In this document: one piece after another, positions 270 through 12,277 of the stretch
Layout: every line of letters starts with the position of its first letter
How positions within the stretch are numbered: the first letter of the stretch is position 1
Source: a virus
Taxonomy: Duplodnaviria > Heunggongvirae > Uroviricota > Caudoviricetes
IMG/VR virus record: IMGVR_UViG_2721755720_000002
Coordinates: 1-37,615 of that record
Reading direction: 5' to 3' (one strand)
DNA length: 37,615 nucleotides
The notes under the pieces: generated by a model
Told to the model about the DNA's origin: nothing
Database searches by the model: none
Seen by the model: only the letters and a program-made list of their open reading frames with translations
Program-made: the position numbers and the translations under genes

Positions 270-614
270 TTAGTCCTTGCGTAGCTCGCTGATTCTTCTG
301 TAAGTCTCTGGTGCTTTGTTTCCGTGTATCTTCATTTCAGACTTCAACAGAGCAACGAGGGAATCCCATTCGTTGAGGATGCCTTTGAATGCCGGAACGC
401 GCTTTGCAACCTTGTCGAATGAATCTCTGATTTCTGGAATCTGCTCAACAAGCGCAACGCATCGCCGGAAGTCTGCTGCGTCATGTGGAGCACCGAAGCT
501 ATGACCATAGATATTCTTTTTCAGTCCACATGCGATTGAGGCAAGAGTTGCGCTACTGATGCCGACATCGCCAGTCGATTGCCATTTCAAAACCTTCATA
601 GCCAAATCTGACAT
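270..614 (-). CDS. hypothetical early-left phage protein (114 aa)
   Basis: Intact ORF with GGAGA Shine-Dalgarno before ATG at 614; no family recognised. Confidence 0.45.
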   Translation of the reverse strand: MSDLAMKVLKWQSTGDVGISSATLASIACGLKKNIYGHSFGAPHDAADFRRCVALVEQIPEIRDSFDKVAKRVPAFKGILNEWDSLVALLKSEMKIHGNKAPETYRRISELRKD

Positions 615-654
615 TTCTTGTCTCCATAAAACAAAACCCGCCGTAGCGAGTTCA

Positions 655-684
655 GATAAAATAAATCCCCGCGAATGCGAGGAT
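655..684 (-). terminator. candidate intrinsic terminator or attenuator on the minus strand after the ASCH-like gene
   Basis: Minus-strand hairpin TCCTCGC-ATT-GCGGGGA (one G-U pair) followed by a U-rich tract; read by eye. Confidence 0.3.
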
Positions 685-686
685 TG

Positions 687-971
687 TTATTCATTGCCGA
701 TATTCACCTTTATCGCGAACACCTTTACCGGTTTATCTCCGAAGTGTGGATGTGTGATTGTCTTCACTTCATATCCGCCATACGGGACGTCAATTCTGCG
801 ACTGGAATCGTCGCGCTTCGGATATCCCTTTGTGATAATCAGGCGGTCATACTCGCGGAACATAATTCGCTTATTCCAGTAGCCATTGCACAGGCGATAC
901 TCTTCCGTTTTCTCTCCGCGAATCATGGCATCGAAGTATTCACCTTTGACGGCAAGTTGCAGGTTAGCCAC
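687..971 (-). CDS. ASCH-like small domain protein (95 aa from GTG start)
   Basis: AGGAGG then 6 nt then GTG at 971-969; product VANLQLAVKGEYFDAMIRGEKTEEYR resembles ASCH-type N-termini; the longer track ORF (687..1046) lacks an RBS and overlaps the upstream gene. Confidence 0.45.
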   Translation of the reverse strand: MANLQLAVKGEYFDAMIRGEKTEEYRLCNGYWNKRIMFREYDRLIITKGYPKRDDSSRRIDVPYGGYEVKTITHPHFGDKPVKVFAIKVNIGNE

Positions 972-1182
972 GGTTAACCTCCTGCGCCGTTTTGATGATT
1001 GCTGCCAGACAATTCTTGCAAGGAACAAGCAGCGGTCCCTGCTCAATGCTCAATAGCGCATGCTGAGCACCATGAAAAAGCCATTCGAATGACCCAGGCC
1101 GATGACCGCACCATGTCTCAATCTCGTGCTTAGGGAGTTTAACTCCCTCTCGATAGTCATATTTGATGATGTGCTTGCTCAC
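964..1182 (-). CDS. hypothetical protein (72 aa, GTG start)
   Basis: AGGAGG 7 nt upstream of GTG at 1182; its stop overlaps the ASCH-like start. Confidence 0.45.
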   Translation of the reverse strand: MSKHIIKYDYREGVKLPKHEIETWCGHRPGSFEWLFHGAQHALLSIEQGPLLVPCKNCLAAIIKTAQEVNRG

Positions 1183-1370
1183 GACTTCACCTCCTGTTGA
1201 GCAGAAACCTGATTTTTGAGTGATTCAGAAATATTCCTGCAATACCTAGCGGATTCATCGTCGAAAATGCTTTCGAAATACTCAGCAATCCAGCCGAACA
1301 CAACAACCTGCTCATTGCTTGGATTTGCACTTTGATTGAAGGCGGTTATTAGTGATGCACTCATACTCAC
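1179..1370 (-). CDS. hypothetical protein (63 aa; GTG at 1370 or ATG at 1364)
   Basis: ORF with AGGAGG upstream; start codon ambiguous; GTGA overlap with the upstream stop. Confidence 0.4.
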   Translation of the reverse strand: MSMSASLITAFNQSANPSNEQVVVFGWIAEYFESIFDDESARYCRNISESLKNQVSAQQEVKS

Positions 1371-1927
1371 TTAACCTCCTGTTTTGGGGCTGCTGGAAGT
1401 GGCATCCAGTGGGTTATGATTACTTCGCGAGGATTGCAGTCGTCCTCTACTGGCTGCCACTCCGTCCATCCATTGGTTTTATGGACAAAGAAATAAGCAG
1501 GAATGTAGTCTGGTTCATCTCCTTCAAAATATGTTCCCCAGCAAAGATACAAGCAATTGCTATCAGGCATTCGCTCACTACAGCTTATCCAACCATCCGG
1601 AGTTCCCGGAGAGTTGCCATTTACATCGAAGTTTGGCTCTGCGTCCTGAACCAGGAGGATGTAACCATTCTTGGCTGTATCAAGTTCTAACGCCTCGGTG
1701 ACGGTGCCGAAATAGCGATTACCTAAATCAGCATCACAAGTGCTTACATCAATGGAAACTTCCATGCCTTCGATTAATTCTGGCAAGTTGTAAGTTTGGC
1801 TTACAGGCTCTGCTTCCAGCGATGACAGTGCAATTCGTGCCAGTTCCATTTGTTCGCCACGGGTAAGCCCGTTTTCAAGCGGGGATTTAATGAACAATTC
1901 GATACGTTCTTTAGTGATAGTGCTCAT
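1367..1927 (-). CDS. DUF551-like phage protein (186 aa)
   Basis: AAAGGAGAG Shine-Dalgarno then ATG at 1927; C-terminal ...FFVHKTNGWTEW...ITHWMPLPAAP resembles the DUF551 signature; the track ORF extends upstream without an RBS. Confidence 0.55.
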   Translation of the reverse strand: MSTITKERIELFIKSPLENGLTRGEQMELARIALSSLEAEPVSQTYNLPELIEGMEVSIDVSTCDADLGNRYFGTVTEALELDTAKNGYILLVQDAEPNFDVNGNSPGTPDGWISCSERMPDSNCLYLCWGTYFEGDEPDYIPAYFFVHKTNGWTEWQPVEDDCNPREVIITHWMPLPAAPKQEVK

Positions 1928-1928
1928 A

Positions 1929-2627
1929 TCACTCTCCTTTGATGCGAATGCCAGCGACGCATGGCACATTAACTTCCACGATGCGCACAGTTGGTTTGTA
2001 CATCTCAATCGCTGTCAGCCAGTCAGCGCCAGTCATGCGCTTTTCTGCATCGCCATTAGTCCACTTAACCGGTACACCAATAGCCTTCATCGCGATTTCT
2101 ATTTCCCCGGCGATGGCGCTTTTTCCGCAACCAGTAAAACCAGATACAACGACCAGAACTTCACCTTTGGCTGGTTTTATTTCCCGCGCTTCCAGTTCTG
2201 CTATGCGCTTACTTCCATCCGAGATAACACCTTCGTAATACTCACGCTGCTCGTTGAGTTTTGATTTTGCTTCCTCAAGCTCAACTCTCAGCTTCCCTAC
2301 CGTTAACGCAATATCCTCGTTCTCCTGGTCGCGGGATTTGATGTATTGCTGGTTCCTTTCCCGTTCATCCAGCAGCGCCAGCACGGTAGCTGGACTGGCT
2401 GCGGCGATGAATTCAGCATTGGCCTGCTGTTCCATTTGGAAATCTTCATCGAAACCGCTTTCAGGATGCGCTCCTTCAATTCTGCAAATGGGAATATATC
2501 CAGCAGCCTCGCGATGAATTAGCGCATCATCACAATCAAATCGGCTCTCTCCATATTCGAGCGACCATACACCACACGTTGCTTTTTCTGCCTTGGCACG
2601 CAGTGCCTCATAGTCAATCTTGCTCAC
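1929..2627 (-). CDS. Ea22/ead-like lambdoid early protein (232 aa, GTG start)
   Basis: AAGGAGG then GTG at 2627, overlapping the upstream stop (GTGA); coiled-coil middle and C-terminal region recalled as Ea22-like. Confidence 0.5.
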   Translation of the reverse strand: MSKIDYEALRAKAEKATCGVWSLEYGESRFDCDDALIHREAAGYIPICRIEGAHPESGFDEDFQMEQQANAEFIAAASPATVLALLDERERNQQYIKSRDQENEDIALTVGKLRVELEEAKSKLNEQREYYEGVISDGSKRIAELEAREIKPAKGEVLVVVSGFTGCGKSAIAGEIEIAMKAIGVPVKWTNGDAEKRMTGADWLTAIEMYKPTVRIVEVNVPCVAGIRIKGE

Positions 2628-3226
2628 TGGTTGCCTCCTTTGCGAATCTGTTCAGCGATATCTTCGAGAACACCATCAGAGAATGAGCGGTCAAAATCGC
2701 CTTCCGGCGCATTAGCCATAAACTCAGTAGAGGTAAGAATCATCCGGGCAATATCCGCGGCGTTCTTCGCAGTATCATCAATAAAACCAGCTTCCCAGGC
2801 AGCCAGCATTCTGTTCGCCACAAAGTAAGCTCCCTCCTTGCGTGCTTCAGTCTTCACTTCAGCCAGGAAAGCATCGGTGGCTGGTGTTTGCGGCATCCCT
2901 CCATCTGTTGCGCAGATATACGCATCAGATATTTCATCCTGCTCGCCATCAAACACGTAGCAACTCTGTGCGATAAATTTATTCAGCCCAGCATTCTCCG
3001 CTGCCAGCGCTGAAAACTTCTCGTGTGCCAACTTAACAGCCGAATCAGCCTGCTTAATTGACTCAATCGCTCTCTGCTGGTCTTCGGCCAGCGCCGAAAT
3101 CTTGGCCTCCGCTTCAGCAAATTTACGCACCAGATATTCAGCGTTTGTTTCGTTAACCTTTAAATCACATGGGATGCATTTACCTTTCAGAAATCCATCC
3201 ATCTCAATTAGTGACATTTGTTTCAT
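2624..3226 (-). CDS. hypothetical acidic early protein (about 200 aa; start at ATG 3226, alternatives 3244 or 3217)
   Basis: ORF track 2624..3244; the ATG at 3226 overlaps the stop of the upstream small ORF (ATGA). Confidence 0.4.
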
Positions 3227-3387
3227 TTCTTCCCACTCCGCCACATCGCATTCAGATATTTGTTGTCATTAACAGAACCGAAACTCTCTCGCTTAAGTAA
3301 TTCCTCTCTCGATGGCATTGGCTTTACGCGCTGGCGAATAATCATTTCTGCCGGAAGAATTCCGGGATTGTATGCAAGTCCTCTCAT
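3223..3387 (-). CDS. small hypothetical protein (54 aa)
   Basis: GAGGA Shine-Dalgarno right after the upstream stop, then ATG at 3387; product [15 protein letters not shown]... Confidence 0.3.
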
Positions 3388-3397
3388 GGTAAATTCC

Positions 3398-3694
3398 TCA
3401 GTCATTACTGATAGCGCCATAGCGTGAGCGGTAATTACGCAGGCGCGGGTCGATATATTCAGGGAATTGGGTATATGTGGCTTTGCGGAATGGTCGGATT
3501 GATGTCTGGTAAATTCGCTCTCGTTCTTCTTTCTCTGCAAGCCATATACAATGGCGAAATTCCTTTTCCTCTTTCGTTTCCTGCGGTAGCGACATTATCC
3601 GATCGTAGTTTTTTCTGAATTTATCCAGCACCTCCGATACGGAATTGCCGGAACAGCGGCGCGCGTCATCCGCACCATACAGAGGCGCTGGCAT
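3398..3694 (-). CDS. hypothetical protein (98 aa)
   Basis: AGGAG Shine-Dalgarno before ATG at 3694; sits directly downstream of the exonuclease gene. Confidence 0.45.
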
Positions 3695-3710
3695 GGTTTT
3701 CTCCTGTTGA

Positions 3711-5491: not shown

Positions 5492-5578
5492 AATTCACCT
5501 CAGAATGGACATGGCCCAAGGAAATAACGCTGATTTAATACTTCAGTCTTTGCCGCATTTAAAAATACGCGAACACCT

Positions 5579-5750
5579 TCACGATCTCCCTTCTGGCGAT
5601 ACATTAACGCCTGCTGCGTGTACATGCGTCTCTGTAACTTGCTCTCCTTCACTGTGGTTGCAAGTGACATGAATATCTCCTTCGTTACCGATTAATTCTT
5701 TCATCTGACGAATGAATTCTTCGTCTGACCAGTTATCTGTAAAACTCATG
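5579..5750 (-). CDS. small acidic hypothetical protein (56 aa), in the position of lambda kil
   Basis: ATG at 5750 overlaps the TGA of the cIII-like gene (ATGA); product MSFTDNWSDEEFIRQMKELIG... Confidence 0.35.
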
Positions 5751-6315: not shown

Positions 6316-6342
6316 AAAAAAATGCCCTCACACTGGAGGGCA
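6316..6342 (-). terminator. intrinsic terminator on the minus strand (tL-like) between the moron and downstream early genes
   Basis: Minus-strand hairpin TGCCCTC-CAGTGT-GAGGGCA followed by seven U. Confidence 0.55.
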
Positions 6343-7431: not shown

Positions 7432-7504
7432 AAATTACAAGAAAGATTGTATGTTGTAAACAAGAAATATTGTAAAAAGGGGCGTGAAAAACAAAATCCA
7501 TTGT
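7432..7504 (-). promoter_or_regulatory. oL/pL: three 434-type 14-bp operators (7437-7450, 7460-7473, 7491-7504) with a candidate leftward promoter (-35 TTTACA 7460-7455, -10 TAATTT 7437-7432)
   Basis: ACAAGAAAGATTGT, ACAAGAAATATTGT and ACAAAATCCATTGT all fit ACAA-N6-TTGT; promoter hexamers with 17-bp spacing overlap them. Confidence 0.7.
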
Positions 7505-7553: not shown

Positions 7554-8906
<1,353 letters not shown>

Positions 8907-11753: not shown

Positions 11754-11975
11754 GTGGCTGACTGGCAAATTCCAATCATCATTCTTGCCGGAGCTTCGCT
11801 GGTTGCTGGCTTTATCCTGCTGAAAAAGCATAAAGACCGTGATCAAAAAGTCGAAGTTCTCTATGGGTATCCAGCGAACAGCACAACATGGCTGACCATT
11901 TACCACTACCGAAAATCAGGCCGCTGGGTATTCGAATGGGATGATCTGTTTGCTGAAAAGCGACCAAAGTCATAG
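11754..11975 (+). CDS. small membrane protein (73 aa, GTG start, one predicted transmembrane helix)
   Basis: GGGAGAGGGAA upstream of GTG at 11754; IPIIILAGASLVAGFILL hydrophobic segment. Confidence 0.4.
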   Translation: MADWQIPIIILAGASLVAGFILLKKHKDRDQKVEVLYGYPANSTTWLTIYHYRKSGRWVFEWDDLFAEKRPKS

Positions 11976-12076
11976 GGAGACATCAGCGAATGCATGATGT
12001 TTGAAGAAAGAAAATCCGGCGCAACCCGAGAAGAGTTTAACGAAGCGTGGGCGCGATTAAGTGAGAGAGGGTATTT

Positions 12077-12277
12077 GTGAGCAAGTACGAAAAATTAGAT
12101 CAAAACATTCTTTCAATGCTGAGTGAAAGACCAACACCTGTTTTTGATATCTGGCTTAAATGGCGGAGCAATGGAATGTATATCGAAACCATCGATCGCC
12201 GTATGCAATACCTGAGAAAGAAAGGGCTTGTTGCAAATGTGCGTGGGAAGGGTTGGGTGAAAATTAACCTGTCATAA
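12077..12277 (+). CDS. hypothetical nin-region protein (66 aa, GTG start)
   Basis: ORF track; GAGAGAGGG upstream of the start. Confidence 0.4.
   Translation: MSKYEKLDQNILSMLSERPTPVFDIWLKWRSNGMYIETIDRRMQYLRKKGLVANVRGKGWVKINLS

Follow-up and report, generated by a model that had tools for sequence, protein, structure and literature searches.

That lambda-like phages pack genes closely, with each stop codon touching or overlapping the next start, is textbook knowledge dating from the 1980s. Overlaps of the ATGA type are typical of the lambdoid nin regions (PMC8022706, citing Kroger & Hobom 1982 and Cheng et al. 1995). Overlapping genes have also been tested for translational coupling, and 13 of 14 pairs were found to be strictly coupled, five of the pairs coming from E. 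coli; one E. coli pair was uncoupled, and the contribution of the Shine-Dalgarno sequence varied from gene to gene (PMC6728339). Classic coupled pairs often encode subunits of one complex (PMC10666635). A further described system is that of the boundary sequences (Clark 2001 and Susskind & Botstein 1978, as cited in PMC3029335), and relaxed recombination has been reported as well (PMC2327257, PMC3945230).

The locus described here shares features with each of these systems. Like the nin region it consists of small accessory genes in an antiterminated lambdoid early operon, with TGA stop codons overlapping ATG or GTG starts, and the curated Sf6 genome shows the same overlap pattern in both its nin and its ea regions. 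Unlike the nin region, which is rightward, the run lies in the leftward (PL) operon and has a higher share of GTG starts with a perfect AGGAGG. As in coupled pairs such as trpB-trpA (Huber et al. 2019, PMC6728339), the genes are co-directional, the overlaps are of -4, -1 or -8 nt and the Shine-Dalgarno sequence lies inside the upstream gene; in contrast to the classic pairs, adjacent genes here are accessory ones with no relation to each other, and they vary from phage to phage. Finally, the junctions resemble lambdoid boundary sequences (Clark et al. 2001 for HK620; 'bsq' in Sf6) in being short and conserved between non-homologous flanks, and the Sf6 element bsq3 is located at the start of the ead homologue. 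They differ from boundary sequences in that the conserved element coincides with a ribosome-binding site and start codon. The overlap-packed early genes are real, ordinary and already known, and involve no new principle.

The ea region of a P22-like phage

Judged by its sequence, the window, by which we mean the whole stretch of 37,615 nucleotides that was analysed, is a P22-like temperate phage of the HK620/Sf6 type (P22/Sf6/HK620-like) with its leftward early genes on the minus strand. The top DNA matches of the region are Sf6, HK620, Huey and HK633, the gene order is the same in the Sf6 annotation, and 434-type OL operators are found at 7437-7504. Within the leftward early operon (PL, N-antiterminated), positions 687-3694 form the distal accessory part, termed 'ea'. 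The ea genes lie downstream of PL/OL, N, erf, ssb and abc2 and upstream of xis, which is the position of the early-left ea region in P22-like phages (Lederbergvirus), and homologous genes are present in those phages. Eight co-directional genes occupy 687-3694 on the minus strand and are listed here in order, followed by the end of the tightly packed chain.

3398..3694, minus strand: abc2 (anti-RecBCD protein 2), 98 aa, ATG 3694; Pfam PF11043 (3.2e-61, residues 1-98)
3223..3387, minus strand: DUF2737 gene, 54 aa, ATG 3387, 10 nt past the abc2 stop
2624..3226, minus strand: orf200 (Ea22-like C-terminal part), ATG 3226, ATGA overlap with the DUF2737 stop
1929..2627, minus strand: ead/Ea22-like gene, 232 aa, GTG 2627, GTGA overlap; AGGAGG 2639..2634
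1367..1927, minus strand: DUF551 gene, 186 aa, ATG 1927, 1 nt past the ead stop (TGAtATG); AGGAG 1938..1934
1179..1364, minus strand: orf61, most likely ATG 1364, 2 nt past the DUF551 stop; AGGAGG 1380..1375
964..1182, minus strand: orf72, GTG 1182, GTGA overlap; AGGAGG 1195..1190
687..971, minus strand: orf94, 94 aa, GTG 971, 8-nt overlap (GTGGCTAA); AGGAGG 983..978; last gene of the chain
634..685, minus strand: two terminator-like hairpins (685..664 and 653..634), directly past the orf94 stop

We infer that these genes are expressed from a single transcript. A consensus scan of the minus strand within 687-3694 found no promoter-like site, and the corresponding terminator scan, also by consensus only, gave one weak internal terminator-like site at 2807..2786, with strong hairpins only after orf94. 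Neither Rfam nor tRNA scanning of the whole window returned a match. NCBIfam supplied no names for the small proteins of the region; PGAP names the orf94 product an ASCH-domain protein.

Start codons across related loci

Start sites were compared across about 285 related loci. The sequence-only reading had preferred short starts to the longest open reading frames and had suggested examining their conservation in related prophages. In that comparison the homologous start codon is kept at the short starts, and the preference is borne out by homologues, profiles, PGAP annotation and third-position variation, with the exception of the start at 1370. The related loci confirm the starts at 971, 1182, 2627, 3226 and 3387, where every aligned locus has a start codon in first position, and relatives in which another gene lies upstream keep it at exactly the homologous position. 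Identity to the window drops from more than 0.9 to about 0.3, the background level, upstream of about -15 to -20; similarity collapses just upstream of the Shine-Dalgarno sequence because the upstream gene differs between phages. Together these sequence comparisons support the short starts over the longest frames. Longest-frame starts not chosen here are at 1046, 2008, 3244 (GTG, orf200) and 3540 (TTG, DUF2737).

At the head of the chain abc2 begins 16 nt after its upstream gene, and no overlap occurs there in relatives, where the gaps are +13 to +46 (25 contexts). The Shine-Dalgarno sequence of the DUF2737 gene, GAGGAA, overlaps the abc2 stop. Pfam and PHROG profiles start at residue 12 of a 65-aa version of this protein, which corresponds to ATG 3387, and the aligned first codon is ATG in 87/87 homologues, including Sf6 with its different upstream gene; the longest frame, from TTG 3540, was rejected on these grounds. 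The orf200 start has a weak Shine-Dalgarno sequence (GGAG at 3239..3236) and an overlap of -4 in 23/23 contexts. A start equivalent to GTG 3244 is excluded, because one homologue has TAA in frame, two codons upstream of the ATG. We also considered a hidden internal start in orf200, from AGGAGG 2838 and the in-frame GTG 2821; this motif most likely just encodes K-E-G in a mosaic protein. For ead, residues 2-146 align with positions 1-139 of Pfam PF13935, 95 homologues begin with GTG and 42 with ATG at the homologous codon (ATG in Sf6), and the spacing with different partners is -4, -14 or +1. DUF551 has ATG in all true N-terminal homologues, with gaps of +1, -4, +3, +10 or +2.

A start at 1370, proposed for the next gene on the basis of a GTGA overlap at 1370/1367, did not hold. 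The GTGA is present and would give orf61 63 aa, with ATG 1364 two codons downstream in frame. However, the GTG is lost (GTT) in 4/30 homologues while ATG 1364 is invariant, the PHROG profile begins at residue 3 of the 63-aa version, and PGAP annotates 61 aa, so that the comparative data favour ATG 1364. The C-terminal tail of DUF551, ...PKQEVK*, encodes the Shine-Dalgarno sequence of orf61, and the GTG at 1370 probably arises simply from the AAG-TGA tail that forms part of a linker shared between junctions. The first codon of orf72 is GTG in 47/48 homologues, with an overlap of -4 in 13/14 contexts. For orf94, positions 1-93 of PHROG_625 align with residues 1-93, homologues have GTG (84) or ATG (26) at the same position, and the spacing is -8 in 37 contexts and -1 in 9. 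In a prophage of 96% identity, PGAP likewise annotates orf94 and orf72 as encoding 94 aa and 72 aa.

This raises the question of whether the GTG codons are real starts at all. Translation could instead begin at downstream ATGs (926 in orf94, 2435 in ead), leaving the overlaps as annotation artefacts. GTG is the weaker initiator, and for the 63-aa version of orf61 the data do favour an ATG two codons downstream. Yet orf72 has no in-frame ATG at all as an alternative, the proteins as started at GTG match Pfam and PHROG profiles from residue 1-2 onwards, and relatives switch the codon to ATG at the same position in two genes, orf94 and ead. The codons right after GTG also evolve as coding sequence, variable sites falling at third codon positions in 14/16 cases in orf72 (p=1e-5) and 10/16 in orf94 (p=0.016), and AGGAGG stands 5-6 nt before GTGs 971, 1182 and 2627 and 4 nt before GTG 1370. 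We consider an artefact of this kind very improbable.

With GTG initiation retained, the value of the comparison lies mainly in annotation. The comparison fixes the start codons of eight small genes of the phage, of which three are GTG, with 1370 moved to 1364, and shows the longest frame to be a wrong call in five cases (orf94, DUF551, orf200, DUF2737 and orf56b). The Sf6 annotation likewise agrees with the shorter start for a gene-38-like frame elsewhere in the window.

Overlaps and ribosome-binding sites

From N to the last early-left gene the gaps are 8, 142, 75, -4, -92, 8, 0, 8, 16, 10, -4, -4, 1, 2 (or -4), -4 and -8 nt. The earlier statement that nearly every junction overlaps was overstated, as only 6-7 of the 16 early-left junctions do. 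Nor are overlaps enriched in 687-3694 relative to the rest of the window (4/7 vs 18/47, Fisher p=0.42), and in curated Sf6 24/58 same-strand junctions overlap; since the frequency does not exceed that of the rest of the genome, there is nothing special to this operon in this respect. GTG starts are marginally enriched, at 3/8 vs 4/51 outside the region, where the gene calls are heuristic (p=0.046).

Direct reading confirmed the GTGA at 1182/1179 and 2627/2624 and the ATGA at 3226/3223. At 971/964 the genes do overlap, by 8 nt (GTGGCTAA: GTG 971..969, TAA 966..964), in a form other than the ATGA or GTGA that had been described. Two further overlaps that the sequence-only reading had placed in the early-left operon lie outside 687-3694.

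5746..5749, minus strand: ATGA overlap of orf56a and orf56b, analogous to the Sf6 gp31/gp30 junction
7955..7958, minus strand: ATGA overlap of the cI-like repressor gene and the gene-38-like gene, on the repressor (PRM) transcript

The first of these is an overlap as reported, with the coordinate off by one (ATG 5749..5747; position 5750 starts CAT). The second is a true ATGA; being upstream of OL/PL (operators 7437-7504), it belongs to the repressor operon and not to the early-left operon.

The association of GTG starts with a strong Shine-Dalgarno sequence inside the upstream gene was upheld. A perfect AGGAGG precedes all four GTGs (971, 1182, 1370 and 2627), with duplex energies of -11.0 to -11.6 kcal/mol, and 4 of the 5 minus-strand AGGAGG motifs in 600-3700 are at GTG junctions (binomial P about 1e-6). 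Duplex energies average -9.25 kcal/mol within the region and -6.8 elsewhere. As in coupled pairs, the Shine-Dalgarno sequence sits inside the upstream gene at a working distance from the downstream start, and from DUF2737 to orf94 the gaps of -4, -4, +1, +2 (or -4), -4 and -8 are as close as in such pairs. Folding of seven junction RNAs revealed no significant structure masking the Shine-Dalgarno sequence (Z -1.3 to +2.1). Each of 200 shuffles folds better than the ead site, and the orf94 site has a small hairpin that is missing from alternative contexts.

The shared linker and the proposed coupling of neighbours

The junctions share a linker, CAGGAGGTKAA, with the consensus CAGGAGGT[G/T]AA. 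We observed CAGGAGG[TC][GT]AA in 115 contexts, and in 114 of these a start codon follows. The linker, of 11-25 nt, precedes at least 15 downstream gene families and follows at least six upstream families, so that a short conserved junction stands between unrelated flanks in different phages. On a small scale it illustrates cleanly that lambda-like phages can exchange accessory genes without loss of their expression.

As the best overall explanation, which we hold to be quite likely, the ea chain would be translated by reinitiation and site opening and joined by this portable linker. From DUF2737 on, each ribosome-binding site lies within the last codons of the preceding gene, with start codons that overlap the preceding stop (ATGA, GTGA, GTGnnTAA) or follow it 1-2 nt later, and the three GTG starts are each paired with a perfect AGGAGG. 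A ribosome finishing one gene may be captured by the adjacent Shine-Dalgarno sequence and restart, and a passing ribosome may also hold the site open for fresh initiation; reinitiation and site opening would thus allow the whole chain to be translated without untranslated gaps. Coupling of this kind is plausible, a reasonable extension to the ea chain of what published tests found for other pairs of genes. Ribosome-binding site and start codon behave as a portable unit that moves with many different genes, being read as the ...Q-E-V-K/N tail of whichever gene is upstream. The tight stoichiometric coupling suggested earlier does not fit the relatives, where the same gene stands behind many unrelated upstream genes (orf94 behind a different one in 61/65 contexts, ead behind an unrelated one in 59/67). 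As neighbours swap freely between phages, a fixed partner ratio is unlikely to be a selected trait. Since the linker travels with many genes, the arrangement would secure expression of interchangeable modules rather than the ratio of particular partners.

It is also conceivable, if rather unlikely, that the overlaps reflect passive genome compaction and the joining of modules, each gene being translated independently from its own strong Shine-Dalgarno sequence. The perfect AGGAGG sites are strong enough for independent initiation, and the junction RNAs are unstructured, the ead site being more open than every shuffle, so no significant structure makes translation depend on an upstream ribosome; both observations count against coupling. 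Partners swap freely, and among tested pairs the Shine-Dalgarno contribution is gene-dependent and one pair is uncoupled (PMC6728339). Passive compaction accounts less well for a spacing of -8 to +2 kept behind many unrelated genes, while abc2 is always at +13 to +46; tight spacing kept despite partner swaps suggests selection on the spacing itself. The weak GTG starts are, moreover, concentrated at overlapping junctions (3/3 here, 5/6 in Sf6), and most tested overlapping pairs are coupled (PMC6728339). Somewhat less doubtful, though still short of probable, is that the junctions are mainly recombination linkers, the 'boundary sequences' of modular theory, at whose short shared homologies phage Erf/Rad52-type recombinases exchange accessory genes, with a secondary role in translation. 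The recurrence of one linker between so many gene families would fit this, as would the break in homology just upstream of it and the 'bsq3 boundary sequence' annotated at the ead start in the Sf6 record. Against it, the core is an optimal Shine-Dalgarno sequence plus start codon, whose conservation translation by itself would explain, and a role in recombination is suggested only by the pattern of joints. Other contexts of the same gene use different ribosome-binding sequences, with four classes for orf94, and the linker is therefore not required.

Between the portable translational linker that we favour and a recombination element lies the tentative possibility, to which we give limited credence, that a standardised linker (...CCG-CAG-CAGGAGGT[G/T]AA plus start codon, about 11-25 nt) has been selected both as a ribosome-binding site and as homology for Erf/Rad52-type swaps. 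Were this so, any new joint could be expressed immediately, the price being a junk Q-E-V-K/N tail carried by the upstream protein.

Operon setting and gene model

In DNA searches the window fell among the HK620/Sf6-type P22-like podophages; the top matches, in mosaic pieces of ~95-97% identity, were Escherichia phage Huey, Shigella phage Sf6, HK633, Sf101 and HK620. Five 434-type operator sites (ACAAnnnnnnTTGT) were found in the window, against 0.9 expected by chance. These mark OL and OR, and the phage therefore has a 434/Sf6-type immunity region. The operators at 7437-7504 place PL/OL near 7440-7500, and the minus-strand early-left operon accordingly extends from this point to 687. Its order matches the leftward order of the curated Sf6 record, with N, accessory genes, kil, erf, ssb, nuclease, abc2, the 'ea' genes and xis. 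Terminator-like hairpins border gene blocks inside this operon, and N-modified polymerase presumably reads through them.

Operators and hairpins
8642-8677: two further 434-type operators
7437-7504: three 434-type operators, between a gene-38-like ORF and N
6323-6342, minus: terminator-like hairpin before orf103
634-685, minus: two terminator-like hairpins directly 3' of orf94
214-233, minus: terminator-like hairpin before the xis-like gene

Candidate starts in the eight-gene chain were each scored for Shine-Dalgarno pairing, and the products checked against Pfam and PHROG profiles. The same starts were picked by an independent gene caller, a heuristic one for which the long ORFs of the window served as training set.

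Genes of the chain
3694..3398, minus: abc2, ATG, 98 aa
3387..3223, minus: DUF2737, ATG, 54 aa
3226..2624, minus: orf200, ATG, 200 aa
2627..1929, minus: ead/Ea22, GTG, 232 aa
1927..1367, minus: DUF551, ATG, 186 aa
1364..1179, minus: orf61, ATG (alternative GTG 1370, giving orf63), 61 aa
1182..964, minus: orf72, GTG, 72 aa
971..687, minus: orf94, GTG, 94 aa

Overlaps at the junctions

The sequence-only reading had described ATGA or GTGA overlaps at nearly every early-left junction. Read directly, 1182/1179 and 2627/2624 are indeed GTGA, and 3226/3223 and 7958/7955 ATGA. The overlap at 971/964 is present but spans 8 nt (GTGGCTAA) and is neither motif; the junction placed at 5750/5746 exists with its ATG one position away, at 5749; and 1370/1367 does carry GTGA, but with an in-frame ATG two codons downstream. 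As a generalisation the claim was incorrect, the gaps from N to orf94 (negative, overlap in nt; positive, spacer) being 8, 142, 75, -4, -92, 8, 0, 8, 16, 10, -4, -4, 1, 2, -4 and -8. Nor is 7958/7955 early-left: this junction, between the repressor gene and the gene that follows it, lies upstream of PL and so is part of the repressor transcript. Overlap frequency did not differ between the region and the rest of the window (4/7 versus 18/47, p=0.42), and in curated Sf6 24/58 junctions overlap, across the virion, ea, nin and lysis regions. A perfect AGGAGG lies upstream of each of the four GTGs, and of the five AGGAGG that the minus strand has in 600-3700, four fall at these GTG junctions (P ~1e-6).

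The ATG at 5749 opens the first of two ORFs that overlap in different frames.

5749..5579, minus: 56-codon ORF
5670..5500, minus: second 56-codon ORF, overlapping the first by 92 nt

A good Shine-Dalgarno site precedes the second, and the equivalent Sf6 pair, gp30/gp29, is annotated with an 80-nt overlap. Heuristic calls gave two more candidate GTG starts on small genes of the rightward nin-like region (11754-12277, plus strand); the Sf6 nin region also has GTG starts, mostly at overlapping junctions.

Short starts and the longest ORFs

We collected ~285 related loci from viral contigs by searching with five of the proteins, and identified in them the homologous codon for every proposed start. 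For orf94 it is GTG in 84 homologues and ATG in 26, and the upstream gene is unlike the window's in 61/65 distinct contexts. The orf72 codon is GTG in 47/48, that of ead GTG in 95 and ATG in 42, and that of DUF2737 ATG in 87/87, also behind a different gene in Sf6. Sf6 has ATG in place of the window's GTG for both ead and a remnant of orf94. Within each gene identity to the window is >0.9; upstream of roughly -15 to -20, immediately 5' to the Shine-Dalgarno site, it is down to background (~0.3), so the extensions of the longest ORFs do not belong to these genes. Of the variable sites in the first few codons that follow the GTG, 14/16 in orf72 (p=1e-5) and 10/16 in orf94 (p=0.016) are third positions, showing that these codons are translated. 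The earlier preference for short starts is thus borne out, with the start codon kept behind differing upstream genes (orf94, DUF2737) and identity lost upstream.

In the fetched loci orf200 always follows DUF2737, so the mosaic-upstream argument is unusable for its start. A start at GTG 3244 was excluded by one homologue with an extension-frame TAA two codons before the ATG. The internal AGGAGG (2838..2833) and in-frame GTG 2821 of orf200 are probably merely K-E-G coding. The gene (2624-3226, minus) also has a mosaic make-up: in other phages (loci L225-L262) the C-terminal ~130 residues are fused to N-terminal parts of many kinds.

A shared linker and translation of the chain

Three window junctions have CAGGAGGT[T/G]AA in common, a form of an 11-nt linker, CAGGAGG[TC][GT]AA, that precedes small gene families here and in the related loci (L002-L285).

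1375-1380, minus: shared linker
1190-1195, minus: shared linker
978-983, minus: shared linker

Across the fetched loci the 11-mer occurs in 115 distinct contexts, with ATG or GTG 3-12 nt after it in 114, and it has at least 15 downstream gene families and at least six upstream partners. Translated in the frame of the upstream gene it gives ...Q-E-V-K/N, a few residues and a stop, a tail found on at least six unrelated upstream proteins; hence the like endings of DUF551 (...PKQEVK*), orf63 (...AQQEVKS*) and orf72 (...TAQEVNRG*). Since the linker stands before many gene families and behind several, the ribosome-binding site and start codon together behave as a portable unit, and the mosaic joints lie directly 5' of it. 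Tight spacing outlasts a change of upstream partner: it is -8 in 37 contexts and -1 in 9 for orf94, -4 in 13/14 for orf72, -4 in 23/23 for orf200, and -4, -14 or +1 for ead. The abc2 spacing, in contrast, is always +13 to +46.

The evidence speaks against the proposed GTG 1370 start of orf63. The GTG is GTT in 4/30 homologues, in which the upstream stop is shifted and forms ATGA with the downstream ATG. ATG 1364 is invariant, PHROG_23654 begins at residue 3 of orf63, and the PGAP annotation of a 96%-identical E. coli prophage gives 61 aa. The GTG is explained as incidental to the AAG-TGA (K-stop) form of the linker.

The junction layout is compatible with translational coupling by termination-reinitiation. 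A published test found strict coupling in 13/14 overlapping pairs, five of the pairs being from E. coli, with a Shine-Dalgarno contribution that varied among pairs (PMC6728339). It is also possible that each gene initiates independently from its own Shine-Dalgarno site, as these sites are very strong. The junction RNAs showed no significant folding (z -1.3 to +2.1), and the ead site was more open than all 200 shuffles. Tight stoichiometric coupling, as previously suggested, found no support: neighbours are swapped freely from phage to phage, which makes a fixed ratio of particular partners unlikely as a selected trait. A more plausible benefit is expression of each interchangeable module together with a gap-free translated message.

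PMC8022706, citing work of 1982 and 1995, describes ATGA overlaps between tightly packed accessory genes as characteristic of the nin region in all lambdoid phages. For HK620 and P22, work cited in PMC3029335 proposed that mosaic joints carry short conserved boundary sequences. The Sf6 record annotates boundary sequences as 'bsq' features, one at the ead start. The finding thus reads correctly an architecture of a known type; the original observation is partly confirmed and its interpretation partly supported, and the phenomenon is ordinary and already known. Its practical use is in start-codon annotation.

Compared with window 687-971, Sf6 (L001, 560-605) retains just an 11-codon orf94 remnant (ATGGCTAACCTGCAACTTGACGTCAAAGGTGAATAA), the body of the gene looking as if lost by deletion between two TGAATA repeats.
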